A DNA stretch of 64,000 nucleotides from Leptogorgia sarmentosa (GCA_964658305.1 OZ210885.1:1798001-1862000), one strand, 5' to 3'; counted from the stretch's first letter, positions 14,710 to 48,600 are shown. Numbers and translations: made by a program. Notes: generated by a model not told the origin, from the letters alone.

Positions 14710-14938
14710 CTGAGATAATTGGCAACAAGCACTACAAGAAACAATTATAGATACCATAGCGATTTTAATTAACTGACTTAAAATCCATACGTTTTTCTAT
14801 CTTTTGCAACATTTAAACCGCATCTGTGTTATACGTATAGTTCGTAGGTTGTGCCTACGGTACCTCAAAAAGTCTCTAGAAAACGATTTTCATTGTCCAT
14901 GTCTTCAGTAGAACTGGAATATTTTGTACGGGAACTAA

Positions 14939-24447: not shown

Positions 24448-24919
24448 CTAATCTGAGGCGTGAGTAGATAAGGCGAACGCAAAATCCCATAACTGTCGAA
24501 GAAAATTTCTCTTCTTCATTTTCGTTTCAAAATCTTCAGGGAGCGCAATCTTTAAAGCGACTTCACAACGTTTAAATTGAGACTTAAAGTCGCCAGGATC
24601 CTCGCGCGGCCTCGAAAACTCCTCCACCTCATCGTAATACACTGTCAACGCGGATAAGAAGTCATTCTTAACATCTGTGCTTGCAGGTAAATGTTGGGAC
24701 TTGGTAATTCGAACCAAGCGAACATCTTTCCAGAGACCTTTATCAACAGAAAACGGCTGGTCATCAGTGGAAGCTGGCTTCAATACGTTGGCGTATTTCT
24801 CGTAATCTGTGCCAGAAATTTCATCTTGTTTCAAAGTCGCTCGTGACTGCAGCAAGAAACGTATGTCAACTTCACGGCCATCAAGAATGAATTGTTCACT
24901 TTCTCGCTCTTCGTCTTGT
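24448..24919 (-). CDS. Helicase-RdRP gene, last coding exon
   Basis: Acceptor TATTTAG at 24920-24921. A phase-2 join gives R-QDEERESEQFILDGREVDIRFLLQSR; the stop ends at 24448. Confidence 0.75.
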
Positions 24920-27900
24920 CTAAATAAGAAAGTACAAGCAGGAATAATTCAATAGTGTACAAAAACACCATCAAATGGATCTGGTAGTGTCAAATAGTAT
25001 TTATAAAATAACCGGGAGTAAGTGAAAAAGACTGCGCGCGCGTGATTGGCTAACAGCCGTTGTTAATGTGAGATTATGTAAACACAGCTATTTCCCGCTG
25101 CTTCTCGCTATTCCGTTATTCCGCTTTTGTCATCGTGTTATTTTGTAAAACTCGTGCAAGTTTGGGAGAACTCGAAATGTGTGGAAACACTTGCCCTTCG
25201 GGCTTGTGTTTCCACACATTTCTCGTTCTCCCAAATTTGCACTCGTGTTTACATAACTCGATGTAAACATAGGAAAATGTTTCTAGGCATCAGACATATC
25301 TAGACATCAGCAGGCGGCACATTAGGAGAAAATTAGTACTTTATTAATAATTACCTATTTCGGTTGCTCTGCCAGATTCGTTTTACATCCGTGACGCACC
25401 ATCGAAGATTAGGAAATCTGACCTCTTTAAATGCCAATTTCTCGTCAAATTTCACGTAAAATTCGACATCTTCGCGGTAGATATCCACTGAGTAGGTTTC
25501 CATGTAGACTGCGTTCTCCATGTGGAATCCATACGATCGAAGGAAGTTCTTCATCTTGTCTTCCTGATAAGCAATGGTAAAGAAAGAACTTCTAGAAGGC
25601 TTATTTTTTACTCGTTTTTTACTCGTTTCATCGCTTCTGATTTCTTTTCTCGGCCTTCTTTTCCTTCTAGTGTGACGTTGCGTTTCCTGATCAACATAGT
25701 CAATTTCCTTTGGAGCTTCGCGTTCCGTTTGGTCGAACCCTTTTTTCAATTTGTTTGCTCTAAGCATGGCAATAGATACGGATTCACTATCTGCAAGGAA
25801 TAGATGTGGTATTCTAAACAGATATGCTCTTCCAAAGTGTACTGCTACTTCATGAATTCCATGTAATTGGGGATCATAGTCTCTTTCGAGGACTTGAAAC
25901 TGCAGTAAGAATTTTTCCGCAAAACGATTGAACATATATTGGGTGTCCTGTGTTGATGGATTTTTTACAAAAGCGAGATGTTGTGGGAGACCATCGTGGG
26001 TCTGATTGCACGGTCCTATGTAAGGAGAGAGGGTGAGCCCATCTTTCACACTTTTACTACCTTCGAATAACATCAAGTTGGCACCCTCTACAAAAGATCC
26101 ACTCATGAGAGACCACTTGTCTGCAGATGCTTGAACTGTCATACGTTCTAGTTCTCTACGTACTGCACGTATTGCTGGCTCACTTCCTCTGACTTCGAGA
26201 ATTGCTGCTTTCCGATGACGTGGGAGACGAGGTCGAATGACCACACTTGTTGCGCCCGTCTTCCTTGCAATTTCTCTAGATTTGCTTTTCTCGACACCCG
26301 ACATGGAGAAGGAAAGAAGAGATGAAAGGAATATCACGCTGTAATCTTCGGAACTAATGCAGGCAAGCATAATTTTTACATCAGCGTACTGCGCCAATAG
26401 TTGATATGAACGTTGCATGTGGTCTTGAAGAAGCTCGATTTTGTCAATCCCAGTTAGTTCAGAAACCTTTTCCTTACCAAGGATACGTGAAAATGGTTCT
26501 GGAATATCTATGTCGCCAATCTTTTCAAAATCGTGAAAGAATTGTATCAACATCCGGCCAAGGTCGTCGAGGTTTGTGCATTCCTTTCCTTGTTCATTAC
26601 ACGTCTCGCTTTTGACGGCGCCCATAACATTCTCGAACTTCGTACACAAGTTTACATCTGAGCTCCGTCCACCAACAAGTTCGTCAAACTTTCGGAAAAC
26701 CTCGTCTCCTTCAAGAATTTTAACTTCTTCACGTTGTATATACTGCGAGATAAAAAGGATGCTCATTGCGTTGGAAATGTTTTCAACATCAGCAGGATTT
26801 CGCAACAAACCGATTCCAACGCACCATTGATGAATAGTCCGGAAGATCAGCAACAAAAGAGGATACTTTTCCACGAGGTTGGAGAGCAACATGGCCATTA
26901 GGATACTGACCTTTGACGCGCTTATATCGCAGACAATGTTGGAGGAACATTGAGTTGATGTAGTCAGTTTTTCAGTTGGTTTCTTGCAAATAAGAATCTA
27001 AGAAAAGAAAATTATTCAGTAATGTAAGATATTTTGTGCAGTGAAAATCCATAAATTAAGTTTTCCTTACGATAGGTCATTTTTCAAGTCCAATGTTTTT
27101 CAGTCCAATCTTACTTGGCTGTGGTCTCAAGCATAGGGAGTTCAAGATGACGACAAGGGATCGACTACGAGTACAGACCAACAATCCGGATGAGTAAATA
27201 CAATTGAAACAATTTCCACCAAACATATATGCAGAAAAAAAATTATGGTGTCATTTCGCTTTTTCCTTGGCCATGTACCTTTAAAAAGGACTACGTAAAA
27301 AAAATATCTCACTACAGTGAGATATTAAATTTTGGAAATCTACATGTACTCGTAGTCAGTTGTCGGTATCTTAAACTACCCAATATCTAATAAAGCACGT
27401 GTTTTAAATTGTACGAAAAATGAAATTTTCTTACCGGATGGCGTTTCTCTTTATTTTGGAGACGAACTTCGAAGAAGAGATTGTTTTTTTCTTTGTCATT
27501 CTCTTCGGCCTTCAGTTTACACACAAGTTGCTGAAGAATGTTCTGTTCCATTTCATTGTTTATGTCGCCATCAGTGGTGTGGGTACTTGGGATGATACAG
27601 AGTTCCATGTTTGAATTGTGATGGCAAAACAGCGTTCTTGATGTTCCAGCGAAGAAGGTGGAGTGATTCAATGCCTGGAGATGAGAATCAATTGAATTCT
27701 TCACACGTATTCGCTCTTTTACCTGTTCCAGCAACAGCATCTTTTCGTCATTGAATATTCTGACGAGACTCTCGCCGACCGCACAGTCAACGTTTTTGGG
27801 AGCGTTTCCGGGCGAATGCTGCTGACACTTCGACATGACGTCATCGAGAAGCCATGGAAGACCCAGTAAACGTTTTCGCTCAAGTTGTTCCCAGCTCTCT

Positions 27901-30900
27901 TCATATGTGGCTTCGTACCAGGCTGAAGCTTTCAGGCATATCTATATTACAAACGATAGGTAGAAAGGCTTTACGCTTGCAACTTTTGGTTGAATTTCTA
28001 GTGCGGTTTTCTCGTATTGATGGTGTAAATGAGTAAACCTGTCACAAACGTTTGGGGATAAGAGTTGCACTCAGAAGATCCGTTATTAATCCACTCGTTC
28101 ACAATTACCGAAGGGAGGAAAATTAAACAATGTACGAAATCTATTACCACAGGTCTATGCTCGTTACTTATTTATTGCCGTTATACGAATGGGTGAAAAG
28201 GAAAATTGTCCATTATTTCATGAAGTCCAAACGTAGTTCAGAGAAGTTTTGCAATCAGTGGAACTATCCAATAGGCTGTACTATCTTGTCTTACGTTTGA
28301 AAAGACATTTTTTTTAAAATTCAGACTCAGTACAAAGGTGAATAATATTGGAGCTCTATTAAAATCAGTTAAAAAAGCTCGGATGCTTCTCAGTATGAAA
28401 AATGATAATCAATTAAATTACCTCTTCTAGATCTGATAGTTTGGCGTCTTTCGTTAATCGCTGTTCGCTCATTCCAAACTCTTCAAAGAACTCACGTCTA
28501 AACTCGCCACGTATGCCACGCAATATCTCCTTTACGACATCTGCAACCCTTGGTTTTTCTTTAGGCAAGCGATTTCGCATCTTCAGGAAACAACCAGTGA
28601 ATATCTCCGCCTCTGAATGGATACCGTAGAGACGCATTAATGCTTCCATCTTATCACGGTATTGTTTATACACCTCCCTCGCACGAGTAAGGTATTTTTC
28701 TCTTCCTGACAAAAGAAAAGATTTATCTATTCGCATTCTTTGGTTGCACTTTTCGGAGGTCGTGTCTTTGAACTTTCGGCAACGCCGATAAAGCTTTCCC
28801 AGAACGTTTTCCGAGGGGTAGCTTGGTTTATCGGTTTTCATCATGAAGTCCGGATAATCTTTTAGCGCCTTCATCTTTGGCATTTTGGGCCACATTCCAG
28901 TTTTCGGGGCATCCACTGCCAAGGAATGAACCTCAGCTAGGTGTAGACAGATTTGTGATTGAATTCCATCTTTTTCTTGATCAGCAAGTGCTTTGTGTCT
29001 ATTATCAATAACCCCCAGTTGGTCTGACCGGATATAATCGACGACAAACTTGGTCAGGTGAGTGGATGTGATTGGTTCTGCCTCTTCTTTCTTTGGTGGC
29101 GCTTTGTAATTCATAGCTTGAAAATCTGGCTTGTTTGGGAGAAGACTTTGTTTCCAGCACACAAAATACAAATCACCGTCCAAGTCACCACCTGGAAAAA
29201 TGAAAATATTTCAACATTCTAAATTACCATTCGTTATGTAGACTAAATAGCCAATTGTGTTGTTGTACGTATCTTTGTAGATAATATAGACTGCAGGAAA
29301 TGTTATATAGTTGCTGAAAAATGTTTATGCGAAAAATTTATATATTTATATATAATCCATCTTATGATACGTTCAAACGCTACCATTGTTGAGCACGATT
29401 CCCATTTTGGCGTACGAAAACTAGTGCTGATGCCACCTTTCGACTTTGCTAAGTTTTCACCTTTGACAGTAGGAAATGTGAAAAATTTTGAATTTAAAAT
29501 TTGAAATGCATTTCCTTCATGCGTGCTCACTGACGAAATGATGCCAAAATGTGAATCGTGCCCGGCAAATCGTAGCGTGTAAACGAACTTTTTAAACGGA
29601 AATAAATAAAAGTTACTATTCCAGCTAATAGGCTGAATCTAGACTCCTATAACAAAGGGACTGTCTATACTGCCACCATTTTTCGAAAACGATGTCTTGA
29701 CTAATATGATAGTTGCAGTATATCTATTACTTGCCATCTTATTAGAACTCACAAGCCCCACTGGATACGCGATGGCCTTGGGCAACAAAATAGGACTACC
29801 AGAAGCTTACAGTTGCTGAATATTCCACTATTTAAGACCGCTAGTAGCCATAGATCCTTTTATTACCGTACAGTAAGCATATGGAACTCTTTAGAAACTC
29901 TTTAGAATCAAGTGACTCAGTACATATTTTCAAGCAAAAAATTAAATCTCATGCAATTATTAAAACAGTTTATACTATCTTAGGATTAGTATTTCGTTTT
30001 GTACATATAATTAGTTTATTACTTATTGTAAATTATCACTGAAAAGCTTCCTTGTATTCTAGGAGCATTTTAGGTTATTTAATGTTCAAAATCGTGGAAA
30101 TGGATGGTTCGTTAATTAGCATAGCATATATTGATAAGGAAATATTAATTAACAACATTAATTAGCCCGTATTAATTAGCATATTTACCTGACATCTCGC
30201 TGGGGTGAGGACGCAATCCCACTCGTGGAAAAACAATACAATCAACCAGATGACTGAGGCCTGGGGCATTCACAGCCTCGAACTGACGGATATCCCCGGG
30301 ATGTAAACATGGATTTCGTGTGACAACAACTGGACCGGTGAGACATCTTGTATCGTCCAAGTTGAACTCGTGTTCTCCATCTGGTTCAGTTGAAACTGCC
30401 GAATACTGAACGAAAACCTTAAAATAGATGGATTAAGATGGACATAAGTATTTTATATAATAGCCATTCTACTCAGTCTACCTTGAAAAAGAATTTTGAT
30501 AAATGAACGGACCGTTCCCCAATTTTAGACAAATTTTCGAATTAGGAGAATTCATCATCACGGCTAAGAAAGAGCACCATCAATTTAGTAAAATAATTCT
30601 GAAGTTTGAAACTCGTTAATTCAAAAGTTCATCAGAAAGGCGAAAGATCCATTCAATAGCAGCTTGTTTGGAAAATAAAAAATCCTTATCCTGCAATTTT
30701 AAATTTTGAAAATTAATAAATTATTTTTAAGAAAAAACTAACCTGTCCCGGCTTTAATATTCCTTCCTCGTCCATGACACCCATCATCAATCGTGCTTCC
30801 TCTGGCGGCAAAAGTATCCGGCCACGTGACAGGAGTTCGTGAATGTGATTTCTATGCATGGCAACCAGTAGGGACTTGAAGAATGGCTCCGTTGTTAATT

Positions 30901-33900
30901 GTAAACCACCATTTGACAACGTACGATAGGACATTTCAACTTTACTTCCGCTTTTTAAAAACGGAATTGCATCAATTTCGTTGACCAACATGTCTGCCAC
31001 AAAAATAAAATTTAAAAAGAATTATTATATTGTTATAAAATACAATTTTGTTCTATTTATTGTGACACATTTTTTATTGGCGACAAGGAACGTCTTATAA
31101 ACTATACCCTCACTAATAATTAATTATTGGATATTAATGATTATATAACAATTTGAATCATTTCAACATTTCTTCAAATCGTCAAGTTATTAAATATAAA
31201 GTAACATCGATAAGTTACGGAAGTTAAGATAAGTTACTGATGTGACTACCGAAGCGTCAAAAAATGAATCCTTCTGGTCTATAAAATTAGCTTATTAATT
31301 TGGCACATAATTATAACAAAGATTGTCTATACATACATTAAAGCATATAGTATGTTTAACGTACTTGCCAATTTATCCAACATTTCCTTTTGCAAAGCAA
31401 TAAATGTGTCATCGGGGACCTCAAGATTGGAAAGAAGCATAATGAGCTGGTGGTTGAGATAAACAGCCTGGGGTCGAGAAGTGTGGGTAACTTCAAGGCG
31501 ACAGTGATTGCTTTCGAATTTCTTCATACTTGGACGGAACGATGCTTTTCTGCCGGGCAATTTAGGATCACTTGCTAGTACTCCTTTGTAACCAGCGAAT
31601 CTTATTTGAAAAGCGGAGGGTGTAAAAGGCTTTTCTAACTTCTTTGCTACCTGAAACGAGAGTTCAGAGAATTATGCGTTGATTCGAGATTTGGATGAAG
31701 TGCGAACTATGGTTCAATGGATGTTGTATCCAATACATTGCAATGCATATATAGGTTAATCTAAATTATAATTACTGCATCAAGTCCACACATTTTTTCT
31801 TACCTCAACAGCAAGCTCCTGCGATATTCGGCCAATTCCATCAGAAAAACAATAATCATTGTCAGCAGTCATAACGTCGGGTTCTTCTGTGAACATTTCT
31901 TCATCACGTGTTTCTATGGCAACTGTATCCGAAGATGTAGAGAAACATTGACCCATTCGAGCCATGTAAGTGGCTACACACCTACACAATTGGAAGCACG
32001 TTGTATCAATGAAACAAGTTTTCTTTTATGGATATTTTTGCATGACTTAATATCGGTCTTACTGTCCATGTCTCATTAATTATGCAACATCTTCAATGGT
32101 ATTTTTAGTTCCATAAGTGAGCACAAAATAAATTACATTCACACGATACGACTAATCATTGAATACCGACACCATGCAATATGTTGGATCTTTTTAACGT
32201 AACAATAGCAATATAAGTAGGTAGTCTTTTCCCAACATATTGGTTGTAGGTATTGAAAGCCTCCTGACAAAAGTTGTGGTAGCCTTTATTCTATATTTAA
32301 CCTATAGGATACTGCAGTAGCGCCCCGCACGCATATTCACGCAATCGCATGAAAATATTCGTTAAAATTTCTTACTTTATTTGGGAAAAGTCTCCCATCC
32401 ATTCTCGCACTTCCTCCACTGAAGTCCTGGACCCCAAAAACCAACAGCTATGATTGCGAAGTTGACTGTTAGAAGCCGCTAGAAAATGGAATGTCGTTCC
32501 TGCAATGTTCAACCCAGTGTTTAGATCTTGATTGATATTATCCAAAATTAGGTCAATACTACCCCGTCCCATAGATAGCTTGGAATGATTTTCTTCTCGA
32601 ATACTGACGCAAATGAAATCATCGTTTGATTCAAAATGTCTGAGCACGCGATTCTTTACCATAACTTCGGGTGGATGCAGCAAAACCCTTGTTGGAGTGA
32701 TAACGACTCGCTTTATTAGAGCACAGTGATTGGGAATTTGATTCTGGTTTTTCGTCGAATGAAATTTAATTTCGCCTGTTAAAAATTTTTCCAGAGTCGC
32801 TTGTGGGTCGCAGAATGGATCTCTTTCAAACGCGAGGCGTAATTTCTCCAGGCAAGCCAAATCAGGATTTCGACCTTGAAGTAGCTCAGCCAGACGCCTT
32901 TCGCAAACTCTTCCACGAATGGACGGGTGGGAGGTGACAATACCCTTAATGATATAGCGGACATCAAAATTCAATTCAGTGGGAAGATTGATCTCGGGAA
33001 ATCGTCCATATGTGTCCTTTATCCAACAGTAAAAGGCTTTTTTCCCGAATCTCGTATCAAGTGTGGTTAGCAGTGATCTTAGAAGTGTGGATTCCTTTGG
33101 TGGGATTCTAAAGCAGTAAGTGAAGCTCTCGCCCCACGCTTTACTACCCCCTCGAACATCGACCACTCTTTCCCAGAACTGGTCCGCATCTGCATGGCGG
33201 GGAACCGGACGATCACGAAAACTTCGGACTACATCAGGATATTCATCATCAGTCGAAAATCTATCGGAATCGCTGTCAGATACTTCAGATAGATTCAGAT
33301 CAATTCCGGCATCCAAAGCATTATTATCTTCATTTTCACTGTCGATATCAGCATCTTCATCATCGTCAATGTCCGCAAATACATCGTTGTCATCAATATC
33401 ATCGGTATATTCTCGATATATTCTGGGAGGGTGCTTCACGGTAAAAATTGCTCTTATCATTTCATTGTCAGTTTTCTTGCGATCAACCAGAACAAAGTCT
33501 TCCAGTTCGCTATATCGGATTTCCAGCTTGTAATTTCTTCTTCGCCATACAAAGAATACGGTAAGCATGTTGAAGCTGTGCTCGAAACGCATTTCAACCT
33601 GCTTCACAGACTCCATATCGAGAGGCCATTCATACTGGAAGCTGGATCGACCGACCAAAGTTCCAACATGCAGGGAATGCGCGAGTAATGTACAGTTCTC
33701 TTCAACTTTTCGAGATGTTTGCGGAAGTAAAGGATACAGCCAAATATTCAACATCTCTTCTTTTTCCAGTATTCGACACCACACGTCAGAAACACTACAG
33801 ATAAACTCATCTTTGGATCGAAATTCATGTGAGATGTTATCTTCACGCTGTTGTAGTGTGAAAGCAATTGGTGGTGTCGAACCTTCTTCCTGGCCAACTG

Positions 33901-36226
33901 TCAGACCATGAATGTTCTCTGTCGGGGATGATGTCGTTGGCCTAACATTGAACGTGCGCTCTAAATTATCAGTTACAGTTTCCAATTGTTTAGCGCAGAT
34001 TTCTTTTCCCTGGAACAACTTGATGATCACGGTAACTGTAGGCCTATATCGCTTAACATAGGTAATGTTTTTTACTTCTTCATCTACAGGCGATTTCAGA
34101 TCAGGCTGTTTTACTTGGCACTTGAATTCACGAGCTTGTTGTTCGGAAACTTCGTTCTTCATAGCTTTAGAAACGACACATTTCATGTTTTCTTCTCGGA
34201 CAGCTAAATCCTTGGCCAACAGTTCTTCCTTTCCGGTACAGATTACAACAAACTCGCTATCGGATCGACGAGAAGCGCGGCCACGGCTTTGTACAAAAGA
34301 ACGTAAAGTTGCAGCACCCTCAAACCGAACGACCAAGTTGCAGATGGGAACATCTAATCCCTCTTCCAAGACACTTGTACTAATGAGTAGCTTTACTTCG
34401 CCGGATTTGAATTGTTGTAAAAGGACTTCTTGCTCGTCTTTCCAGGCCATTCCATCGAACCCACCATCTCCGTGACCTACAAATGCGGCAGGATTCAGCA
34501 ATCTGGATATGTCTGGATTCCCTCTGAGTTTTTCGCAAAGTTTGTAGGCTGTCTTACGCATACACACGAAAATAATCCCTCTGGAAGTTTGATCTTCTCG
34601 TACCCGAAGAATAAACTTGCGTATCCGGAGCTCCAGACGTCCGTAACGATCAGACATGGGGCAAGTCTCGTCGACCATTCCTGCGGCATGGTTCTTTAGG
34701 TCCACAAATGTCTGCTTTGTCCCGATCAACCTCTTCAAGGCACTTTGACTTGGGGAAATGGCTTGAATGATGCTGTTCACGCAACCGTTCAAGTATTCAA
34801 TCGCGTCCTTGTAAGAAAGAACTTGATTTACGTCAACAACGCTGAGCAGGCGCATGATGTGTTCACTGACGATCAAGGTTTCTACCATGTTCTTGTCTCC
34901 ATGACATCTCTCTATCAGATTTCTCAGCGCTCCTCTGAAATGATTACAAAACACAGTTAGGCGCGTGAGCAGCTGACCACAGCCTACGGTCTTTTCGATA
35001 AGGCTTTTTCGAAGTTCTTCAATATGATCCTTCACGAGTGTTTCCAGAATTATCTGACGCGTATTCGTTGTTGTTACAACGTCATACCAAGTGTCGGGTG
35101 CATTGACGTGAGCAACCAAATCATCCGATTCCACAGGCATCGTAACATGGCAATGTAGATTTTTAAGTAACTTTTCAAGCTTCTCGGTGGTTCTTTCTAC
35201 GGTCATTTCACCAGCCGGTGAAGCAGTCAATCCTAGCACAAGAGGTTTCAAAGAATCAGGTTTAAGTTGTTGATAAAAATCTTTCATGATTTGATTGTAA
35301 GGATGACCGCCATTGCAATGATGCGCCTCATCAAATACGAGCACAGAAATATTGGAAAGTCGAATTTCCGAATTTCCCACTGCGAGATTATCCAGAAATA
35401 TTTGGTGTGTGAGAACTAAAATATCCACTGTCCTATCGGCCAGCGCTTGATGAACATCTTTCTTCTGTAATGGGGACATTTCACCTGTCAATGTTGCAAC
35501 CCTCAAATGACGAAGCTGGGACTGAAAATACGCACTTTGTTGATAAGCCAGCGGTATACGATCAACGATGAATACCATAAACTTTCCGGGATTGAGTTGC
35601 TTCATGCAACTGAACACCATCGCTGCAACTAATGTCTTACCCGAACCAGTAGGAAGATAAACAAGTTTGTTTCCACGCATAGTTGCCAGAAAAAGTTCAC
35701 GCTGGTAGTTTCGTGGTGTCTGGGCTGTCAAACAGTCAATCTCTCTTGATGAGCAGGTTAATCCTGTTACGTCGCAGTACGTCATGGGCACACTGGACTG
35801 ATGTGTTTGACTGGACATGACTTCTGATGGACGAAATTCAATAACCTCAATTCCCAATGACTGTAGATATGGAGCCACCGTTGCAAGCTTCTTCATTTCA
35901 ATCTTTTCTCCGTCATTTAAAAGCCAAATATTTTCTACCTTGTAACAAACAAGCAATATCGAGGCGAGATACGTTATATTCCCCACGTGGGTCGCACATT
36001 CTCGGCAACGGATTATATATGGACAATATCTAGCGCTTCTTGCTGATCGCGAGTTCTCTTCTTTTGTAACTTTAGCGTAAGCCTCGTCTTCCATTCCTAC
36101 TCTTACTGCAAGGTGTCGCTGTGAAGGGGGCATTGTTGCAAGCATTAGGATTTCTTTTCGTGCCAGTGTACTGTCACATTTTTTGCAGATAAGAGAAATG
36201 CCGGTTGTCACGTGATTTGAGGCCAT
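24448..36226 (-). CDS. Multidomain RNA-silencing enzyme: Zn domain + RIG-I/Dicer-like DExH helicase + cellular RNA-dependent RNA polymerase + degenerate nucleotidyltransferase-like + KH-like + unknown C-terminal domain (about 2728 aa)
   Basis: Nine coding exons with GT-AG introns and consistent phases: 36226-32376, 31981-31804, 31650-31365, 30993-30743, 30417-30189, 29191-28422, 27941-27435, 26997-25355, 24919-24448 (8187 nt, a multiple of 3). Helicase motifs LPTGSGKT, DEAH, TAS and QSRGRA. RdRP motifs ARMGQCFS, FSDGIGRIS, FQIRFAGYKG, RNPCLHPGD, SGGDLDGD and KASAWY. Confidence 0.9.
25144..25253. repeat. Palindromic repeat in the last intron of the RdRP gene
   Basis: TGTAAAACTCGTGCAAGTTTGGGAGAACTCGAAATGTGTGGAAACAC pairs with GTGTTTCCACACATTTCTCGTTCTCCCAAATTTGCACTCGTGTTTACA around a GCCCTTCGGGC core. 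Confidence 0.8.
25355..26997 (-). CDS. Helicase-RdRP gene exon 8 (second half of the NTase/PAP-associated-like region, KH-like domain, start of the C-terminal domain)
   Basis: Acceptor TTTCTTAG|ATT at 26997, open for 547 codons, donor AG|GTAATT at 25355. Confidence 0.8.
27135..27381. mobile_element. Degenerate MITE in intron 7 of the RdRP gene
   Basis: GGGAGTTCAAGATGACGACAA..GACTACGAGTAC and GTACTCGTAGTCAGTTGTCGGTATCTTAAACTACCC form imperfect TIRs. Confidence 0.6.
27435..27941 (-). CDS. Helicase-RdRP gene exon 7 (end of RdRP head domain, start of NTase-like fold)
   Basis: ICLKASAWYEATY..LLGLPWLL runs in frame into FFAGTSRTLFCHHNSNMELCII; donor CCG|GTAAGA. Confidence 0.85.
28422..29191 (-). 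CDS. Helicase-RdRP gene exon 6 (catalytic DLDGD)
   Basis: GGDLDGDLYFVCW (DLDGD at 29186-29172), LGVIDNRH, HSLAVDAPKTG, YPDFM, VLGKLYR. Confidence 0.92.
30189..30417 (-). CDS. Helicase-RdRP gene exon 5
   Basis: VFVQYS..GPVVVTRNPCLHPGDIR..HLVDCIVFPRVGLRPHPSEMSG. Confidence 0.92.
30743..30993 (-). CDS. Helicase-RdRP gene exon 4
   Basis: EPFFKSLL..RGRILLP..LMMGVMDEEGILKPGQ. Confidence 0.9.
31365..31650 (-). CDS. Helicase-RdRP gene exon 3
   Basis: PSAFQIRFAGYKGVL..RPSMKKF..YLNHQLIMLLS. Confidence 0.9.
31804..31981 (-). CDS. Helicase-RdRP gene exon 2
   Basis: YMARMGQCFSTS..YCFSDGIGRIS. Confidence 0.9.
32376..36226 (-). CDS. Helicase-RdRP gene, first coding exon (Zn domain, DExH helicase, RdRP N-terminal region)
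   Basis: 3851-nt open exon with ATG at 36226, 16 nt after an acceptor-like TTTTTCAACAG (so an upstream exon may exist). It ends VITPTRV..NRVLRHF..FLAASNSQLRNHSCWF..WMGDF, the start of the RdRP domain. Confidence 0.92.
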
Positions 36227-39200
36227 CACTTCCGCTAACTTTCTGTTGAAAAAACGAAATATGCGTCGTGCATTATGTCTTTTATACAACAAATGTTAGA
36301 ACCGCAAAATTCAAGAAATCGGCAGTTATGAGAGCAAATCTTTAACAAAAGGTTATGATATGCCGTAAAAGGACTGGGGGATTAGATTAACTTAACTAAT
36401 CGGATAATTCTGTATCCGTGTGTATTTGAATTAATAGGAGAAATCCTATCTACTCGAATACTTAAACTGGAAAACAAAGTGTACAAGATCAGGAAATTGA
36501 CAGAAAATTAATTCAAAATATCTGCCGATGTCCACTTTTTTGTGCCAAGAATTGGCTTCTTCCCTTTTTATCTTGACAGACTAAGTGAAAAGGTCGAATT
36601 TGAAGGATAATTATTTGAACTTAGGTTAGAAGTGTTTTAGCCAGTTTTGATGCCGCTTTGAGCAATTTTCAGTCGGCGCTTGTTACAGAAAAAGGCAAAT
36701 TGGCTCAGTAACCGGACGACTACAAAATATTCGATTCAAAGCAGGCTTTGCGAGCTGTGATGAATTGGAACGAGTTCTCTGACGATGATCAAAAGACAAG
36801 GAAAGCTCAAGACAAGGGAATATTAAATCTTGCAAATGATCTCTAGCAAAAACGGCTCTTCCAGTGTTAGATAAATAGGTCCACCATCTTTATTCTTGGG
36901 ATCATTATTATAATACCCACCTCCTACAGGGACAGTAACAAACGCTATACACTATAAGGAGATCCGTGCTCAGGCTATTTCATGATCAACCCACGCAATA
37001 TAAAGTTTAGCAATTATGCAAAACGGATGCTGATCACTATTAATTGTAAATAGTACCCTCAACAAGGAAACTGAACGTCCGGTTTGTCTGGCTAAATTTA
37101 TGTGCAGAACATCGACTATAGTTGTGTACAAGTGATAATTTAACTTCTTTTTAGGTAAAGGTCGTTTTTATGACGCGTTTTATCTTCTCAATAGTACATT
37201 TGTGTACTACAGTAAATTTTAATTTTTCTAAAAGCGATCGACTTCATGTATTTGTGTACACTGTACATATATATATATATATATACGTATTTGACAATTT
37301 TGTTTGCTTTGGACTTTGGCCGGATATTGTATCCTGTGGATATCAGGCTATCAGCAGATTCTTAACGGATTTCATTGTGGTTAAAAAGGTATGTACGAAG
37401 CAAAAGAAACTCATTGCTCTACATCAAATCCGCACGGCGCACGTGTTACTTTCGGCCAACTTATCACACTATAGTCTATAATTATATTATAATGATTTTG
37501 ATCATAAAAATTTGAGAAGCTTTGCATATTTAAGGCTTTGTATAAACACAAGTACAAATAAACGGCGCCCTACAGCATAAAGAAACAGCTTTTGTTGGGT
37601 ATATAAAAATTGAATAACATTGAATTCTGGTCTATCTTGTAGGTAGTGGGTATGCCTTCGCTTCCCAGTCGATCGATGAATGACAAAATAGCCATAACTG
37701 CACTGCATTTGTGGGTAGAATTGTAACAAAATTGTCCCCGTTGCGCGTGACCTGCTGACCTGCTGAATATACTGAATGATTATTTCTCAAAGGAACTAAT
37801 CTTTGGTTTAAACGTACCCTAAAGCAGCAACAGTAAGTGAATTTACACAAAACACTCCAAATAGCTTGAGCGTTTTGCACTGAGCTGACTGGCGGTGAGC
37901 ATGAGACGGAGAAAATGAAATTAATATCATGACTAGCTATTGACGACGGTGTACTGGACTACACTTATGGAATACAATTTGATTGAGAACAATGACCGCT
38001 TTCTGGATAGATTAGCAACTAAAATTTAAATATTATAAATAGTATTGACCCAAACCACCATTCTAACCTTCACTCTATTTCGGTTGCTCATTTTGAAAAA
38101 AGGGCCGCGTGTATTTCACCGTTGTTGAAGAACAGCGCTCGTTGGCGTCGAAGGCTATTATTGCCAACCCCTGACTTCAAATTGGTTATAATTTTTTTAT
38201 TCTCCTGTGATAATCCTTACTATATTCAGCTTACCTTTTAGCCAAGTTGACGGTTTTCAGAAATATTCTACATTTCAAACACGTCTCAATAATATACGTC
38301 TTCAGGTCAGAATGAGAAAACGAAACAAAATTTTCTGTGATAATACTAGGAAATTCAATTCTTGGAATCAGGCACGTTGTCAACTGTCAAGCTCCCAAAA
38401 TATCCCGAGGTTTCCCCCAAAATCCCCACTTTTCGTTCTCAGGCTTTCGGCCTAACGGCAAAAAAATTAAAACCCGCAGTTCGATCGAAGCTTGTCCACC
38501 CTAATTTATTAGTCGATTATACGTTTTTAAGTCGATTTCGTGTTGAGTACTTTGGTCTTCGGGTTCTCAAAAACCCCAAGAATGTTGATTAAAATGAATT
38601 TACCAATTAATATTGATTTTAATCCTGCCACCATTTTGGTGTTTCAAGTGCACATCAAGATTTGTTGCACTAAATTTGTTCGCTATTTCCATCATCAGAT
38701 CGAGAGAGGCAGGGGTCGATCTGCTCGACTTTGGAAGATTCGTAGCAGAAGAATGTTTGAATATGGGCTATCTTGAGCGAAAATATAGTCATTATATTCT
38801 GGACTGCGAGATCATTTCAGCGACATTATAAGCAGTGGGTTTAAGGAATAATAATGCTTTCTACATTGAAAGAAAAAATGAAGGAATTGGTCGCTATTGA
38901 TATGTGATAAGCGAAATAGCTATAACTATTAGCTACTGTAGGAATTCCCGACACTTGAATCACTAATGATACCGACTTGAAAATAACCTTATATCGGCTG
39001 TCCTAAGTATATAAGCCTACTGTAAGATTATCCTTTCTGTATAGACTGTCGCCCAAGTCTGGATTGTGAATCACTAACTTCCCCAGTTTTCCAAGCGCTC
39101 GTTTCATAAAAACGTGACATCATCAAGACATCAACATGTTTGATAGGAGCAGTCTTGCATACTAAAGACGTGCTTACAGAAAGAACTAATCTGACAATCA

Positions 39201-42200
39201 ACAATCATGATTCTGACTTAAACCCCGCAAGTCTCGATTGTGAGTCACTAACTTCCCCTGTTTTCCAAGCACTTTTATAAAAACGTGTAATGTTAATATA
39301 CATTTGATCGGAGAAGACGTGCTCACCAATTTTAATTTATTCAACGTTAGAATGAAGCGAGAATATTTTAGCGCATAACTGACTGAATACAGAATGTGCA
39401 CACAACGTATTGAATGAACTTGTCCACTAAAACTATAGGCACGAAGCCCCGGAACTATAAGAGAAATTAACTTACTGACAAAAAGGTTTTCTAGTAAACA
39501 ATGATTTTGTGTGCATTAAGTGTTTTGATGGTTCATTAAAAGTTCTTTGAGGTGAAAAATCTTTGTTCATACAGCACAAGTGTTTTAACAAGAAGCTTTA
39601 ACAGTATACCGAGATAATGTGACAAACTGCATGACTACAAAATTTATCTTGAGCAACTATTCAGCTTTTCAAACGGTGATGAAGCTAAACGTTTGCATTA
39701 ACAATGCGAAAAGGATTAATTTCCAATTCTATCACTAAACAACCGAACATAACCGTAATCCTAATCCTGCTGATTATCCGTTTTTAGGACAAAGTTATAA
39801 TTATGCACTATATGGAATATGACCTGAGTGATCTTTAAACAAAAACGGGTTCAGTATGTCATAAATGGAACAGAGAAGGGCTGAGAAAACGACGGCCGCA
39901 AGTTGTGGATGGTATTTTCGAATAAGACAATAAATTATTGTTCAAGGTTTCTATGTCTTCCTAATCGTCTATCCCTTCTAAAGTAACGAAGTAACCAGTC
40001 CTCCCTCGTGTGTAACGCGGTTAGAATTCATCTACGAAGACACGATGACCCTTCACAATAATAATTATCCTTTTCACATTTTTAGTGCGGTTTCAGCTCA
40101 ATATTCTCATCCTGTATATCAATAATAAATAAAAGGGACAAACAGACTTGGTAAATTATTCACTACAGATGGTCGGGTTTTTGCTGGATCGTGGATTATG
40201 TTTCGTGCACTTTGAAATTTACTGTAGAGGAATTAATTATCTTCCGACATGGAGAGCAAAATTGGATTATTATAAATTTGAGATTTTATGGCCTTTTAAA
40301 GAGCTTTAGTTATTTGACTTCTGATTCAACATTTGCCGTTTGCATTGCATAAGAGAACAGTTTAATTTGGGGCTCTTATCATGAAATACTTAATTGGCTC
40401 TCCGTATTTACTATTATTGTGTTCAAATTATCCCGTTCGGACGTTATGAAATAAATTGAGTACATGCAGTATGAAACGGGCATATAGGCAATAGGCAAAG
40501 TATTATAAAATCAACGAATTCTCCCCCCCCCCTCCGGAAATTTTTTTATCTTTAGTCTAGATTCTTCGTAGCCACACTTAATTCTCTCTCTTCGTACGTT
40601 ATGTTTTGACATATTTTGGCTGAAATAGGATGTCCGAATTGAAAAACCTACGTCCTTTCGATGAAGTGGTTTGAAGTGTGTTCAGAAATAGCAGCCATGT
40701 TATAATTTAACTTGGAATACTGCGCGAGCGACATGAGTTATTGCACTTTTTTTCGCTAATTCTATTCTGATGACGACTGTAGTTGCGTACAGATCATGCA
40801 ATATTATTCATATACAGGAAGTGGAACAATGGCGCAAAAAAGGTTCACGCATTTGATGTTTTACAGCAGAAATTTGTATAAAAGTTATAAATAAAAGTTA
40901 CGCGGCTGCATACAAAAAGGCCTAACTTAATAAGTCTGCTATGTCACATTAAGCGGATCTTAAGATCTTCGTGCTCCTAGACTTAGTCTAGCTATTAGTG
41001 GAGATATTGTAGTTTTAAATAAAGAGGCTTTATCGCGATTCCTTAATTTTGTTGGAAAGAAAGAGATTTTATTCAAATTGCAATACTTGCTAAGATGAAA
41101 GCCTGCTGCAATGGGAAGACTAAATTGCCAACTAGTGGACGCAAATTCATAAAAATCGTTGTCATTCGCTTTGGCAAAAAACGTTCCAAACAATTCCCTC
41201 ATGTTTCTTCGATTTTGCCGTTATGTTCATATACCCATACCTGAAGTAGCTATATATTCACGTATATCACGCTAATGAAATCATTGAAAGCCATGAACAT
41301 TATCAAAATCAACTTGATTGAAGTTTATAGCAGAGGATGCAAAAGGATCATATTGTTAATAATAATGCATATAGAATTTTCACCATGATTGCAACGACAA
41401 CCTTTGGCAAAAATCTTGCAGAAAGCCTGTGCGTGGAAGACAAATACCTAAAAGTAGACTGCCTAACTGCGATGGACATTTTAATTCCGGCGTGTCTGAG
41501 AGCTAGGGATATGTAGTTTACCTCGATGGTTTTCTTTTGTAGCAACAGAAAGCAAAACAGTCAATAAAATTAATGTTAACAAGATGTATAATTTACGAAA
41601 AATAGTGGAAGATTGAAAGATAGAAAATTAGTTTAGCTCTCCTAAGTTGAACTACCAAGGAAAATTATTAAACGCTTAACTCTTCCGCCAAATAAAACCT
41701 AATCAAATTATGGATTATTGTTCACTCATTACAGTTGTAGATCTAGTTATGTAGAGAAATATTTTCATATTTTTCGTAGCGCTTATGTACAAATTTCGGA
41801 ACCACGATGGCTTCGAAATTACCAGAATAATTCCTGAACTTTTTCGCCAGCCCTGAACGGTCGCATATTATTTTGTAGAGTAGATTTAGCACTTATACAG
41901 AGTCCTTGTTTGAAACACAGTCGCATTGTGCAGAATATCTGGCTTGCACGTCGTGGTACTTTATGCTGTCTTCAAGTTTCAATACAAGGACAGGATGTTC
42001 GTTCGTATGTACTTGATGAAGAACTAGGTTTTAGACAAAAAATGACTTTTATTTGTTCTTTATGAATAGTATGTGTGATTCTGCATGTTCGCTAATGCAC
42101 TCAGTAACTGTCAAGAATCGACGGAAATAACCGGTGCATGTAGTTTAGCACGCCATATTCAAAAACGTTCACAGAGAGCTTTAGGTGTGTGTCAAGAAAT

Positions 42201-42218
42201 ATGCATGATCTCAGTTGA

Positions 42219-42330
42219 TATAAAAGTAGCTGCTAGTGACAGGAGGTATGCAGTTCTGTTTGAAAGTTTGTTCCAGTTGGAAGATACTTCATATTGGACT
42301 GAGAGACAATATTTCTGTCTGAAAGGTTGG
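42219..42330 (+). promoter_or_regulatory. Putative TATA box and non-coding first exon of lectin/VWD gene 1
   Basis: TATAAAAGTAGCTG at 42219, conserved as CATAAAAGTAGCTG at 54244 in the paralog. Both are followed ~100 bp later by AAGGTTGGTA (donor-like), and both ATGs sit 8 nt after an acceptor. Confidence 0.5.
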
Positions 42331-42628
42331 TATAACATGCAAGCTTTTGTAGTTAGATATCTTGCAGTTAGGTTTGATCAGATTGCGTTTTTTAGGTTTT
42401 TTCATTTCGATTTTGATGTCATATCGTTGTGTATTTGGATTTAGATAATTCAAGGTTTTGGGCTTTTGATTTTTAGCTTAATATATATTTAAAAGCCAGT
42501 GCTGTCTGGGTAAATTTGTTTCGGTCTTGTTTTAAGAAAAAAGCGTAGAGCTATACAGTAGCTCTTCAGTCCATAATAATTTATTTTACTTCTATAATTA
42601 TTCACTTGTGATTCTTTTAGACAACAAG

Positions 42629-45600
42629 ATGTTGAAATTTCACATTCTTCTGGTTGTTTCGGTTGTTTTGCCAAGTAGACTTGATGGTAAGTGTAAATTA
42701 CTACAGGCGTACATTTCGCTCAATCGATTAGCAGTTTCGCAATTGACAACCCGCAAACCACCCGCGGTTCGTTTGGAGAGACAACACAATGTAGGAAGGA
42801 ACTTTTAAGATTCATTTGAAGAATAAGATATTAAAGATATCTTATTATTGCACATCCATGAGTATAGAGAATTACGGGCAGTGGAGCCGTGAAGTAAAAT
42901 TCCTATCTTATATCGCACTCACGATTATTTGGTACATGATAGTGGAAGTCGTATCAACGTTTTGATTGCTTGACATTTTCTTGCCTGCAGAAGTTTTATT
43001 ATCGCCTGTTTGCAGGCTGAATGAAAGACGGGAAGTACAATGTCTGTACTGCTACACGTTATGCACAGGGTTCTCTTATAGCAAGCGAATTGTGTGACCA
43101 TAAGCAAACAAATAAACATTTTGTTAATGTTTTTTAGCTGCTTGTCCCAATGAGTGGAAAGAATACGAAGATATTTGCTATAAAAGGTTTCCAGCAAATT
43201 CTTGGAGGAACGCCAAAAAAGCATGTGAGGCTATTGAGGCTAAACTGGCTGAGCCAATAGGGGATGAGCAAAACAAATTTCTGAATGACACGTTTGAGGG
43301 AAATGATTGGCTAGGTTACACTCGATGTCATAGAAACAGCACGTGTCGTCTGGATTTCTCTAATGCCGCGTGGACCAACTGGGCGGCTGGTCAACCAGAC
43401 AAGTCACCGCAATATCCCCCGGGACAAAGAAACAAGGACTTCGCAGTTGTGATCCGAGGAGATGGAAAATGGATAGATCAACCAAAGCAGGAAAAACGTC
43501 GTTATATTTGCGAAAAACCAGGTAAAGCTGGATTTCTGGGGTGGGGGGTTGGGCGGGGGGGTTGCTTCAGCCCCCCTAAATATTTTTTGATTGAAAAAAA
43601 TGTTTTTAGAACACTAAAAAGCTTAAAAGGAAAACATTCTAATAAACGATCGGCAAAGACTCGCAAAAGGAAGCAATTTAAGGCCTAGATTAAAGGCCAA
43701 CCCTCACATTTTATCTATTTGAAAATGTAGACATGTAAAGGACAGGTAAAGGTGGAAGCAAGACGTGAACGATAATTTGGGGGTTGAATATTCAAGTACA
43801 CACATGTGACGACAACTGATTTCAAATGGTAGTTCCATTACACCAGTTTCGTCGGTGTTTAGATTATGCTTTCGCCAATTTGGAAAAATCATTAGTTGTA
43901 CTGCAGTGTACTCGTCTATGCCAATCAGCATCTAGGAATCTTATTTATGGTAATTTTAATAGAAACATTCTTTTTTCCCAGAGGACCTATGTTTTGGCAA
44001 CTTTTGTAACCCAAAAGGAAGTACTTGTGTTGATGGAAAATGTGTGTGCAAGCCTCCGCATTATGGTGAATATTGTTATGGTAAGTTCTGTTTTGTATTT
44101 CATAACATTGCATGGATAGGCTTACTGGAAAAATTAAAAAGTATTAATGTTTGAATGACAGGTCCATCGTTTTGTTATCTATACATAATTCATATACCAA
44201 AACAATATACACATAATAAACGGCCGATTTTTACGATCGGCAAGTCAAGTAAATGTTTTATCATTCAGTTTGCTTCAACTTTTTTCCCTCCATGTATATT
44301 ATGCGTCCTTTGCAAAAATTCAAAGATGTTTAATGTTTGGAATAACTAAAACAAGTTTTTGAAATGAGTGTGTTTATGTTTCAGGTCTGCCTTGTGATAA
44401 AAAACCTTGTGAAAACGGGGGAACATGTAAAAATGTACCGGAAGGCTACACGTGTACATGTATCAATCATTACGCAGGGAAAAACTGTTCAGGTAAATAA
44501 TTATTCATTGTCTTTTTCATTCAAATTAATCTACACAATTTACATTGTGTAGATTAATCGAGTAGAGCTAATATGAGTAAAAATTAATATCAAAAATTAC
44601 AGATTTTTGTCCACGATTGATCAAAGAACAATTAATGTCAACTTTTTCTGTCAAGTCATGTCCCTTAAACTGTGGTTTTGTACTATAATTAATTTATATA
44701 ATTAATGCACTATAACATACATACTGGCCATGTAAGTTAGCAAACTTCAAAATGTGACATAAAGGTAGGTCCCGGATAAACGTTCTATTCACTACCGATA
44801 CAATAAGATTGGGCGTTTCGACCAAAACGCCTCTTCCCGAGGAAGGGTCGTAGTGAGCAATTCAAACTTTTTCTTCCTTTTGGTATTCTAATTCTACTAT
44901 TCCATTGTGCCGCAATGGTAATGCAACAAGCAAGCATATCGTATTCACTAGAAATAAGTAAACAAACAAGCAAGGCTCCAAAATATAATATACATATTTT
45001 TTCACCTATTCAGATGTCTCTTCACAATATGATAACTATAGATTATTTTTCAACGAAAAATGTTGGTATACGTGTTTGAAAAATCAAAACGTTACAAAAA
45101 ATGTTTATATACACCATAGAAATTGTAGTATCTTTTTTCATTACTTTCAGAACCACCTCCATGTAAGATTAATGATCCCTGCATAAATGGTGTTTGTGAA
45201 GACATCAGCAACGTTCAGTACAAATGCAAATGCAACATGGGCTGGATTGGAACTACTTGTGCAGGTATTTTTTAAATACTAATGCTTTGGTCTTCAAATT
45301 CATGAATGTAATAATATAATAATGGTTTCACAAATTATTAGGCAAGGGGGGGGGGGGGATGTTATTTGGATAAAATGGTCGATCCTAAAGAAATACCAAA
45401 AATTGGATATTGTTTTTTCCAGAACGACCATGTGATCGCAACCCTTGTCCCAAAGCAAAGAAATGCGTTAACAAAGGATTTACACACGAGTGCGTTTGTG
45501 AGCGAGGCTGGACGGGCAATAACTGTGAAAAAGGTAAGAAATCTCGTTTAAATTTAATTTTTCGAATAAAAACCAACCCAAACTATTTACCCTCCCAAAC

Positions 45601-48600
45601 CCCCGCCCCCGCAAAATTATCACAAAATGGATTGGTAATGAGCGTCAACATGCATTATGCATTTTCACGTTATAATTTCGAGTCTTTTACTTAGTGTAGC
45701 TGGAACTACAAGCTAATATTTTGAGATTATTGATGACAATATATTTTTCGACAGAGGGAGTGACTAATGGTGATCCTCACTACAGAACATTTGATGGTAG
45801 ACATTACAACTTCCAGGGCAAGTGTGAATATATTTTCGCCAAAGATTGTAGCGAAGATCATGCTTTTGAAGTTCTTCAACAGAATGAAGCTTGTGCCAGG
45901 CCCGGTAGCTGCACTAAATCTCTGAAAATTATCACCCAACAAATGGAGATTAGAATGGAGAGAGGGGGAATCGTTTATGTCGACGGAATTCGCGTTCCTC
46001 TTCCCTGGAGAGCTTCGACACCTACAACACCTTCGAATCTGGAAGTAAGGGAAGCTAAACCTCAGACAACAGGTAATCTTAACCAGAAATTTGAATTATT
46101 AGCAATTTTATTCTCGCCCAATTCCTTTTACAATAATGTAGACTGTATTTAGCAAACGTATTACAAACTTAATACAGGGTGAAAGTCCTCACAGTTGTAA
46201 TAATTATATCAATGATGTCATAAAACTACCAAGCCAGAAACGACTGCTACACTGAGGCGAATCGCAACATGCTCAAAATCGTGTATTCCAACACTGGCTG
46301 CCCGTAAAGCCGAATCAGCCAACGTTCCAAACGCTGGTCGTTGATTTCGGCGAACTTTTCCTAAAAATATAAGGTTCATTTAATTCAAACACGGCATTCT
46401 GAAGAAATCATATCTCCGAAAGAAAGGGAAAGCAGTTTCCAGGCTTTAATCAACAAAGTACCGGTCGCGCCACTTCCAGTGTGATATGAATAATAATTTT
46501 CTACACAGCACTGTGAGATTTGGGTGTCTCTTTTTCTTTGTCTATGTGAAAACGTATTAGCAATTAATTATTAATTATTAATTATTATGAAGCATATAAA
46601 TTCTATGAATAAGTTTTTGCAAATAAACTGCTATTGCTATAATCAATAAATCAAAGGGCACCTGAAAAATTCAATAGAGAGTTGGGCTGCATGGACCAAT
46701 CAGATTGCAAGAAGTGTTATAGCCACACAATTGATACTAATGTATATACTACTTCAGGTGAGGTAACTACAATTACTGGCCACGGAAATGGTGCTTTTCT
46801 GCAAGTTCCTGCTCTCTTGTTTTCTGTCCGTTGGAATGGCTACATGGATGTGAATGTAAAAATTAACCAACGTTATAGAAACAAGACCTGCGGTTTGTTG
46901 GGAAATGCTGATAGCAATGTAAACAACGATTACCGACTGCGGGACGGGACTGTTACTCAAAATGTTGCAGAGTTTGGAAACAGCTGGAAGACGAATCCTC
47001 ATTGCGTGAATGGCAAAATTCCACCAGATCCATGCACGATGCTCAGCAGACAAGAATACATTAAGATCCAACAAAAGTGTGCCAGAATGAGGCAGCCACC
47101 ATTTAGCCAATGCAATGAAAGAGTCAATTCAGATAATGGTCATATTACTGACTGTGAATACGACGTATGTGCTATGCATGATTCTAACCCATCTGGAGCC
47201 TGGTGCCAAGCTATGGAAACGTACGACGAGGCTTGTACTGCGTTGGGAGTCAAAGTTGACTGGGAAGGAAAACCCGGGTTTGAAGAATGTGGTAAGAAGT
47301 GCATCATAAACATTCCATTATAGGTTGCATTCACAGTAAATGCGAGAAAATTTTCTTTAGTAGAATTATACTAGTATTGAATTGCAAATACTGCAATTTG
47401 AGTAGCTTCTCAACTCGCTATCTATTTCTCCATGTTACCGAGAATCAAAGTTTCTTTTAATGAAAACTAATGTCCTTTTGCATGTTTTTTTTTATTTTCT
47501 GTTTAATCTCTGCTGCTGGATTATTTGATTTGGACGAGGTGTATATTTATCAGACAAATTCGTACAAAATACCTGACTGGAAATTATCCGCCTAGTGATT
47601 TGAAGCTGTTAAGCAATTGAAGCATGCGATCTTAGTCACTTCGTATTGTTAACTTCCTTATTTCTAGGAAATCCATGTGCCAATATTCCTTGCTTTAATG
47701 GTGCCATATGTAGGAATACGAACAGAACAGCATACGTATGTGATTGTCCCACAGGATTCAGTGGTCCTACCTGTCAAAATGTTGGTTAGTATATAATTTA
47801 AATTACATTACATCTTATTTTGAGGACAACTATTATATTTCATATCATTTTGGTGGGCAATTGTGGGTGTTGTGGGAATTACCATATAACGGTTCAGTGG
47901 TGCTTTTATATCCATGCCGGTGAGAAATGTAGGAAATTTTCAGGAAGTATATGGTAGCTGAAGGACATCATAGCTACAAAAAAATTCCAAAAAGCAACTA
48001 AAATGCAATAACGTTGTATTTTTTCTGTAATTTAAACTGCCATGCTTGGTAATATGTCAATTGTCTTCTTTCAATCCCCTTCATCAATTTTAGAAACCAA
48101 TCATAGGTAGTGACAGGTATTAATTTTTATCTTGCTATTTGTAGACTGCAGGCCTGGATATACTGGCCGTGGTAACCTTTGCTACAAGTTAATGGGTAGA
48201 CGACCTTGGCCTGTTGCAAAATGCCGACAAGGAGATCAATTCGTGTCTGCAGAAGACGAAGATGAAAATAGATTCATATACGAGAAATTTGTGGAACCAT
48301 CCAGAAAGTCATTGTGGATGCACGCCCGTGTTTGTGCAGGAGGGAAGCTTTGTCATCAGGATTACGGCCCCGTGTTCTACAACAACATCGATGGTGATCT
48401 GCCAAAGACGGGATGTGTCCAAATGCCTTTCGGGAAAGGGATGAAATGGTTCGTGAAGAATTGCAGAGCCGCTGCGGCCTATGTTTGCAAATACGGTGAG
48501 TGGTTTTAAGTGTCGATTCGTGCATTCTAGTTTTACATATAGTTATAGCCCCCCCCCCCCCCCCGAAAATGTTTGGGAAATACACGTTTTATCACATCAT

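Follow-up and report, generated by a model that had tools for sequence, protein, structure and literature searches.

The window analysed here is a 64,000-nucleotide (nt) stretch of the Leptogorgia sarmentosa genome (GCA_964658305.1 OZ210885.1:1798001-1862000), whose minus strand carries a gene for a single-chain protein with a predicted RIG-I-like receptor (RLR) C-terminal domain (CTD) at its N-terminus, followed by a helicase and an RNA-dependent RNA polymerase (RdRP). The coding region (24448..36226) consists of nine exons (36226-32376, 31981-31804, 31650-31365, 30993-30743, 30417-30189, 29191-28422, 27941-27435, 26997-25355 and 24919 to the stop codon at ~24450), which join into one open frame of 2728 residues. 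An 8638-nt spliced contig from run X4 spans the gene, and all eight coding joints are GT..AG (runs X4-X6 provided spliced contigs, and X1-X3 were genomic). The protein is 76% identical to its full-length homologue P0019, and its nearest named relative is a protein of the octocoral Dendronephthya. At position 32861 the window lacks 6 nt, i.e. two residues in frame, that are present in all three spliced runs and in homologues.

Along this chain, the RLR-type CTD (RIG-I_C-RD), a C4 zinc beta-tent domain, occupies residues 10-131 (35834..36199) as judged by Pfam, AlphaFold, Foldseek, VIA-align and conservation. The initial annotation had placed it at 35850..36226; its motifs do lie in the open reading frame starting from the ATG at 36226, and the domain itself covers ~36199-35834, reaching slightly beyond 35850. 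The domain contains two CxxC pairs, CKKC (C14-C17, 36187-36176) and CREC (C74-C77, 36007-35996, followed by YKVENI), with 56 residues between them, which bears out the spacing of about 55 residues noted earlier. A linker of ~35 residues (132-166, 35729..35833) leads to a Dicer/RLR-type superfamily 2 helicase (residues 167-690, 34157..35728; Pfam DEAD, ResIII and Helicase_C), in which motifs GSGKT (194) and DEAH (299) are intact and whose PDB matches are AncD1D2, DCL1, RIG-I and LGP2. Then come a weakly matched, probable RdRP-associated PH-like domain (33392..33679; PF25358, E=0.086), for which homologues give PF25359 at E=0.003 (P0019) and 6e-7 (P0089), and the eukaryotic RdRP domain (PF05183, residues 1176-1738, exons 2-7, 28773..32701) with an intact DLDGD at 29186-29172. 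A degenerate TENT/Cid12-like nucleotidyltransferase domain, located by motif alignment at about residues 1940-2060 across intron 8 (26890..27689), and an unannotated tail complete the protein. With a DExH helicase and a PF05183 RdRP bearing DxDGD in one chain, it belongs to the helicase-RdRP family.

The nucleotidyltransferase domain gave no Pfam match in the window exons or in P0019 and P0081, and PF22600 was matched in all seven of the more distant homologues scanned (Bremia below the cut-off). A loose motif-pattern count (24/31) was replaced by reading of the aligned motif, in which 22 of the 31 rows have DxD and 6 have DxN, two are degenerate (the window protein and P0081) and one was wrongly cut (P0019). 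The catalytic aspartate pair is lost in the Leptogorgia gene, and the motif is also degenerate in Dendronephthya. Most family members carry a TENT-type nucleotidyltransferase behind the RdRP, and therefore the family combines an RNA-end domain, a helicase, a polymerase and a tailing enzyme in one chain.

The fold of the N-terminal domain was assessed from an AlphaFold model built from nine sequences (pLDDT 85.9). Among the Foldseek matches listed to rank 47, every one was an RLR or DRH CTD, and in VIA-align against 48,161 chains the nine best were CTDs of RIG-I, LGP2, MDA5, DRH-1 and DRH-3 (Z 10.5-13.5), each alignment comprising 106-118 residues and reaching the end of the model, terminal helix included. 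For MsrB, Mis18, cereblon and YPEL5, Z was 6.6-8.7 and 84-91 residues were aligned, the alignments ending at residue 105-111, without the terminal K-W helix. The best match, RIG-I 802-921 (Z 13.5, root-mean-square deviation 3.2, 114 aligned), shares both sheets of the beta-tent and the C-terminal helix, and identity in the structural alignments to RIG-I, MDA5 and LGP2 CTDs is 13-21%. For a model of the domain of the oomycete Bremia lactucae (pLDDT 76.8), nine RLR/DRH chains again came first, at Z 8.6-10.5 versus 5.2-7.2 for other beta-tents, so that Yippee, Mis18, the cereblon CULT domain and MsrB rank lower with both models. Thus, the first ~130 residues are predicted to fold as an RLR CTD and not as a generic Yippee domain. 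The initial annotation had left the choice at a RIG-I-CTD/Yippee-like fold and suggested a comparison with RIG-I_C-RD, Yippee-Mis18 and cereblon; this comparison, with RLR CTDs at Z 10.5-13.5 and others at 8.7 or less, narrows the assignment to the RLR CTD specifically.

This domain is not peculiar to Leptogorgia. A profile of close relatives, run against 1.84 billion representatives, retrieved 17 proteins, and the 13 inspected were 12 family members or fragments and one cereblon. Searching with domain and helicase together among long proteins gave 98 matches, 56 with an RdRP domain and 42 Dicers or others. The 56 helicase-RdRPs come from anthozoans, a glass sponge, a flatworm, oomycetes, dinoflagellates, Pelomyxa, a chytrid and Riccia, plus many unnamed sources. 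The CTD is present in 50 of them (27 of the 33 that did not contribute to the profile), in each case ahead of helicase motif I, and in 0/42 of the Dicers and other helicases; the six helicase-RdRPs without it all begin inside or just before the helicase, their N-terminus being cut. Several anthozoans and the sponge Oopsacas have two or more paralogues (P0088/P0089, P0082/P0084, P0109/P0118/P0124), and the anthozoan members form two clades.

As a control, sequences were shuffled, and with the wider profile A3, 10 of 11 named distant proteins outscored every one of 200 shuffles (the exception was a truncated Aphanomyces protein), whereas with the narrower profile A2, made of close anthozoan relatives only, just 6/11 did so. 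Anthozoan and non-anthozoan CTD alignments match each other at 97.8% probability, and in a PDB search with the non-anthozoan alignment alone, MDA5 is the top match (E=6e-4). The first cysteine is absent from the Riccia model, and the first half of the domain from the Pelomyxa model. Tree distances of CTD and helicase are correlated (rho 0.68; 0.74 without anthozoans; 0/2000 permutations), and RdRP distances likewise correlate with both, as expected from joint inheritance. The CTD heads helicase-RdRPs across eukaryotes, including oomycete, dinoflagellate, chytrid, amoebozoan and liverwort members, and this supposedly animal-only RNA sensor is likely to be far older than animals. The initial annotation had missed this family-wide arrangement, which is partly in print.

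Of 100 sequences with the domain, 35 that are non-redundant and of anthozoan type were used to examine the putative RNA face, and all counts over 35 refer to this set. A basic or identical residue is kept at H38 (34/35), K55 (35/35), R63 (33/35), K96 (35/35) and K113 (34/35). In profile alignments, H38 coincides with the MDA5 His-His motif, K96 with the Lys conserved in MDA5 and LGP2, and K112-K113-L114 with the K-K-W motif of these two proteins, and the alignments to MDA5, LGP2 and DRH-3 agree in placing H38, K96 and K113 at the conserved His, Lys and KW positions. In RIG-I, the corresponding residues H830, K888 and K907 contact RNA with or without a triphosphate, and K858/K861 form the triphosphate pocket, which MDA5 and LGP2 do not have and hence ignore the 5′-triphosphate (accessible text of PMC3045611). 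Judging from its sequence, the CTD is likely to bind double-stranded RNA (dsRNA) in general. The positions equivalent to K858 and K861, located by counting from the cysteines, hold C68 (K/R in 0/35) and I71 (K/R in 13/35), which is the MDA5/LGP2 condition. The RIG-I-type basic cluster is absent, and therefore the 5′-triphosphate end selection suggested by the initial annotation is unsupported. A basic residue at the K861-equivalent position is found mainly in the other of the two anthozoan clades. It weighs against this account of the RNA face that residues were equated through profile alignments and by counting from cysteines rather than by superposing coordinates.

The basic loop does leave some room for a different account, in which the CTD, like those of RIG-I and DRH-3, selects duplex ends bearing a 5′-triphosphate and thereby reads the de novo products of the RdRP or viral replication intermediates. 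The DRH-3 CTD prefers 5′-triphosphate RNA through lysines of its beta5-beta6 loop (accessible part of PMC8464030), and by an ungapped count from the third cysteine, DRH-3 K988 and K993 fall on K55 and R60 (the latter K/R in 16/35); moreover, R63 is nearly always basic, K96 is kept, and the CTDs of DRH-1 and DRH-3 are among the top structural matches. However, the loop register is uncertain, as HMMER opens a gap there, the position of DRH-3 R1016 is N83, and the K858/K861 positions are C68/I71. In addition, in the accessible parts of the reports, Nematostella has neither 5′-triphosphate secondary small interfering RNAs (siRNAs) (PMC12768352) nor a 5′-triphosphate-dependent response (PMC8476169). 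Hence, we regard general dsRNA binding as likely and triphosphate selection as rather unlikely.

Profile scores are less decisive about the domain than its predicted structure. Pfam RIG-I_C-RD (PF11648) matches the window domain at E=2.1e-5 and Yippee-Mis18 at E=2.3e-3; among nine close homologues the former is matched in eight (best 1e-7) and the latter in all nine (best 2.6e-5). Several results weigh against the RLR assignment: the RIG-I_C-RD score of 25.1 bits is slightly below the gathering cut-off of 25.6, which Acropora P0089 passes at 26.6 bits; in 28 diverse members, Yippee-Mis18 is matched in 16/28 versus 14/28 for RIG-I_C-RD; the ESM Atlas returned only generic beta-tent clusters (At4g08330, FAM72, Yippee) with scores <0.9; and Leu replaces the KW-motif Trp here and in 31/35 of the anthozoan-type members, although K113 is kept and Trp is found in most others. 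Because Pfam counts are so similar, sequence alone separates the two families poorly. A single-domain phmmer search of the PDB gave no match, and profile searches of the PDB did not reach RIG-I's own CTD by sequence at E<10. Weak profile matches to YopM, ribosomal L33 and ankyrins were dismissed as spurious.

These similarities, together with the cereblon that was the sole non-family protein noted in the profile search, could be taken to mean that the zinc domain is a protein-binding or purely structural module of Yippee/Mis18/cereblon type which no longer touches RNA. We consider this quite improbable, since both structural models rank RLR CTDs higher and include the RLR-specific terminal helix, conserved basic residues and a His stand at RLR RNA-contact positions, and across eukaryotes the domain is consistently accompanied by an RNA helicase. 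The putative zinc ligands fit the RLR CTD assignment as a C4 site of two CxxC pairs, with C74 and C77 present in 35/35 members and C14 and C17 in all 30 rows with letters there.

The position of the CTD at the head of the chain follows from transcript and gene models. The start codon M1 (36224..36226) is the first in-frame ATG of the spliced transcript, and it is preceded by intron 1 (36243..38234, 1992 nt, GT..AG) and a non-coding exon 1 (38235..39132), whose coordinates reflect contig coverage (X4 139 nt, X5 898 nt, X6 30 nt) and not a mapped 5′ end. The joint from 38235 to 36242 is seen in contigs of 3/3 runs, all from one study, so the acceptor at 36243 pointed out in the initial annotation is real. 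Read in frame with M1, exon 1 has a stop at 38389-38387, 56 codons upstream, with no Met between; this stop is reached by the X5 contig only, and the 139 nt of X4 contain no in-frame ATG. Thus, exon 1 is non-coding and adds no CARD. CTD and helicase are encoded within one exon, and in the gene models of Dendronephthya, Acropora, Nematostella, Bremia and dinoflagellates the chain starts 2-13 residues ahead of the first cysteine. No CARD family appears among the domains listed for the 56 helicase-RdRP relatives, and none of these proteins has a second CTD copy after the helicase. With no upstream Met, gene models starting near the first cysteine and no CARD in relatives, the zinc domain therefore heads the protein, and both the permuted order and the lack of CARDs claimed by the initial annotation stand, the CTD lying before motif I in all carriers. 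The whole protein accordingly departs from the layout of a RIG-I-like receptor, as its CTD precedes motif I and N-terminal CARDs are absent. That the N-terminal position is an artefact, either of an upstream coding exon adding CARDs or a helicase or of the tail of a neighbouring RLR gene, is hardly credible and largely refuted by the single exon for CTD and helicase, the upstream frame without Met, the independent gene models and the 56 relatives, even though the 5′ ends are known from the assembled contigs of a single study and the stop covered by X5 alone lies where an antisense gene overlaps.

This antisense gene is a second spliced gene on the plus strand (37154-42686) with GT..AG joints at 37386/37641 and 37832/39788, and its contigs continue into a C-type lectin exon at 43128 (PF00059). 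The splice layout puts the 5′ exons of this gene within the first intron of the RdRP gene, and the two transcripts therefore overlap head to head. Other features in the window are an avidin-family gene on the minus strand (14283-14744; PF01382, E=2e-24), two similar tandem genes on the plus strand (43128-47323 and 56118-61417) with C-type lectin exons and von Willebrand D-like exons, the latter assigned by eye, and two similar open reading frames at 878-1759 and 6626-7489, labelled by eye as G-protein-coupled receptor-like. The last intron of the RdRP gene contains, at 25000-25300, a short repeat of very high copy number that shows inverted joints and is probably a small mobile element.

We propose that the CTD grips dsRNA together with the helicase and so loads or steers the RdRP on duplex RNA, which we hold to be probable from the conserved residues, the models and analogy with known systems. 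Zinc would hold the CTD fold, while H38, K96, K113 and the basic loop K55-R63 would contact the backbone at or near the duplex end without a strict need for a 5′-triphosphate. The 35-residue linker may let the CTD occupy its usual place beside the helicase despite coming first in the chain, such that the two would clamp duplex RNA, and RNA-stimulated ATP hydrolysis might then position, load, move or release the RdRP. This proposal is based on analogy with the ring that RLR CTD and helicase form on dsRNA (accessible text of PMC6723221) and with DRH-3, an RdRP-binding protein with a proposed role in moving RdRPs along templates (accessible text of PMC8464030). The Leptogorgia protein would combine in one chain the DRH-3 and RdRP module of nematodes. 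Its output is fairly inferred to be enzymatic rather than signalling, and it may serve antiviral or transposon defence.

Data from other species bear on what the protein might produce. Three Nematostella RdRPs rise after poly(I:C), and a 5′-triphosphate makes no difference to this response (accessible part of PMC8476169). Dictyostelium RrpC, a helicase-RdRP, drives secondary siRNAs, probably via long dsRNA and Dicer (accessible part of PMC3661229). A finding that speaks against a siRNA-amplifying role is that Nematostella has no detectable secondary siRNAs after dsRNA injection (accessible part of PMC12768352), which argues against 22G-like products in anthozoans; there, making or handling long dsRNA would be more likely than producing 22G-type small RNAs. 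CTD-headed enzymes offer a handle on the role of cnidarian RdRPs, which are induced by dsRNA, yet secondary siRNAs are not seen.

The history of the helicase was addressed with trees that contained no RLR sequence. IQ-TREE, with 28 of 54 rows, split 18 helicase-RdRPs and one snail zinc-finger helicase from 9 Dicers at 100/100, and FastTree on all 54 rows agrees on the division between RdRP-helicases and Dicers; because of the snail row inside the RdRP-helicase group, the set is not strictly one clade. The land snail proteins P0113 and P0115 are C2H2 zinc-finger helicases without RdRP or CTD which stand beside or inside the RdRP-helicase group and adjoin the anthozoan clade at 92/87, and they are possibly offshoots that traded the CTD for dsRNA-binding zinc fingers. 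By helicase profile score, Dicers (393, 343 and 299 bits) are above LGP2 (286), RIG-I (278) and MDA5 (275).

RLRs, and the CTD in particular, have been described as animal-specific (accessible text of PMC6723221 and PMC8662601), and the non-animal CTD-headed helicase-RdRPs are a concrete candidate source of the RLR RNA-end sensor. We tentatively suggest, with more doubt than confidence, that the CTD arose before animals at the head of an all-in-one CTD-helicase-RdRP-nucleotidyltransferase enzyme, from which RIG-I, MDA5 and LGP2 as well as DRH-1 and DRH-3 descend, their domain order having been swapped and the polymerase lost; if so, the partnership of DRH-3 with RdRPs would be left over from the fused state. 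An equally good fit is that the CTD alone was borrowed. With no RLR in the trees and Dicer helicases closer by profile score, RLR descent is therefore possible rather than established.

Compared with the RIG-I/MDA5/LGP2 CTD (PF11648), the Leptogorgia domain shares the predicted fold including the terminal helix, the C4 zinc site, the His, Lys and K(W) RNA-contact positions and a Dicer/RLR-type helicase as partner, but it differs in preceding the helicase, without CARDs and with an RdRP following, and in missing the K858/K861 cluster. C. elegans DRH-3, working with RdRPs of RRF-1/EGO-1 type, is likewise an RLR helicase with a CTD that acts alongside an RdRP, whereas there the proteins are separate, DRH-3 has CARD-like domains and its CTD is C-terminal; here all are in one chain. 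RdRP complexes with a nucleotidyltransferase include those of fission yeast Cid12 and Tetrahymena Rdn, which similarly have this enzyme beside the RdRP, but as separate proteins and not as a degenerate domain of one chain.

The helicase-RdRPs of Dictyostelium (RrpA-C), oomycetes, Hydra and Nematostella join DEAD/helicase-C and RdRP domains in one chain (accessible parts of PMC4791657 and PMC3661229). The named Nematostella and oomycete proteins fall in the same set as the window protein, and Dictyostelium RrpA-C, outside the analysed set, are alike by description only. In the accessible parts of the same two papers these proteins are described with helicase and RdRP only, unlike the CTD-headed chain found here, and the terms RIG-I, zinc, CTD, regulatory domain and nucleotidyltransferase occur 0 times in the main text of PMC4791657; helicases are not mentioned in the accessible part of PMC6396948. 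Coral 'LGP2-like receptors with RdRP domain' consist of a RIG RD, a helicase and an RdRP, plus a nucleotidyltransferase in A. millepora, and served as an argument for LGP2 being the oldest RLR (accessible text of PMC8260672); there, their order is called canonical and they are treated as LGP2, whereas our results would reinterpret these genes as RdRPs. The 'reversed RLRs' of Hydra and Hofstenia have an N-terminal RLR CTD before the helicase, no CARD, and form one clade (accessible text of PMC8662601), but RdRP has 0 occurrences in text and supplement, and we infer that they are fragments of the CTD-helicase-RdRP family. In its accessible text, neither PMC8260672 nor PMC8662601 links its proteins to helicase-RdRPs or to non-animals. 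A literature search, with most subscription papers beyond reach, found no paper joining these reports or placing the CTD outside animals. Thus, while the helicase-RdRP family itself was known but under-described, what is new is that the CTD extends beyond animals and that three so far separate reports are brought together.

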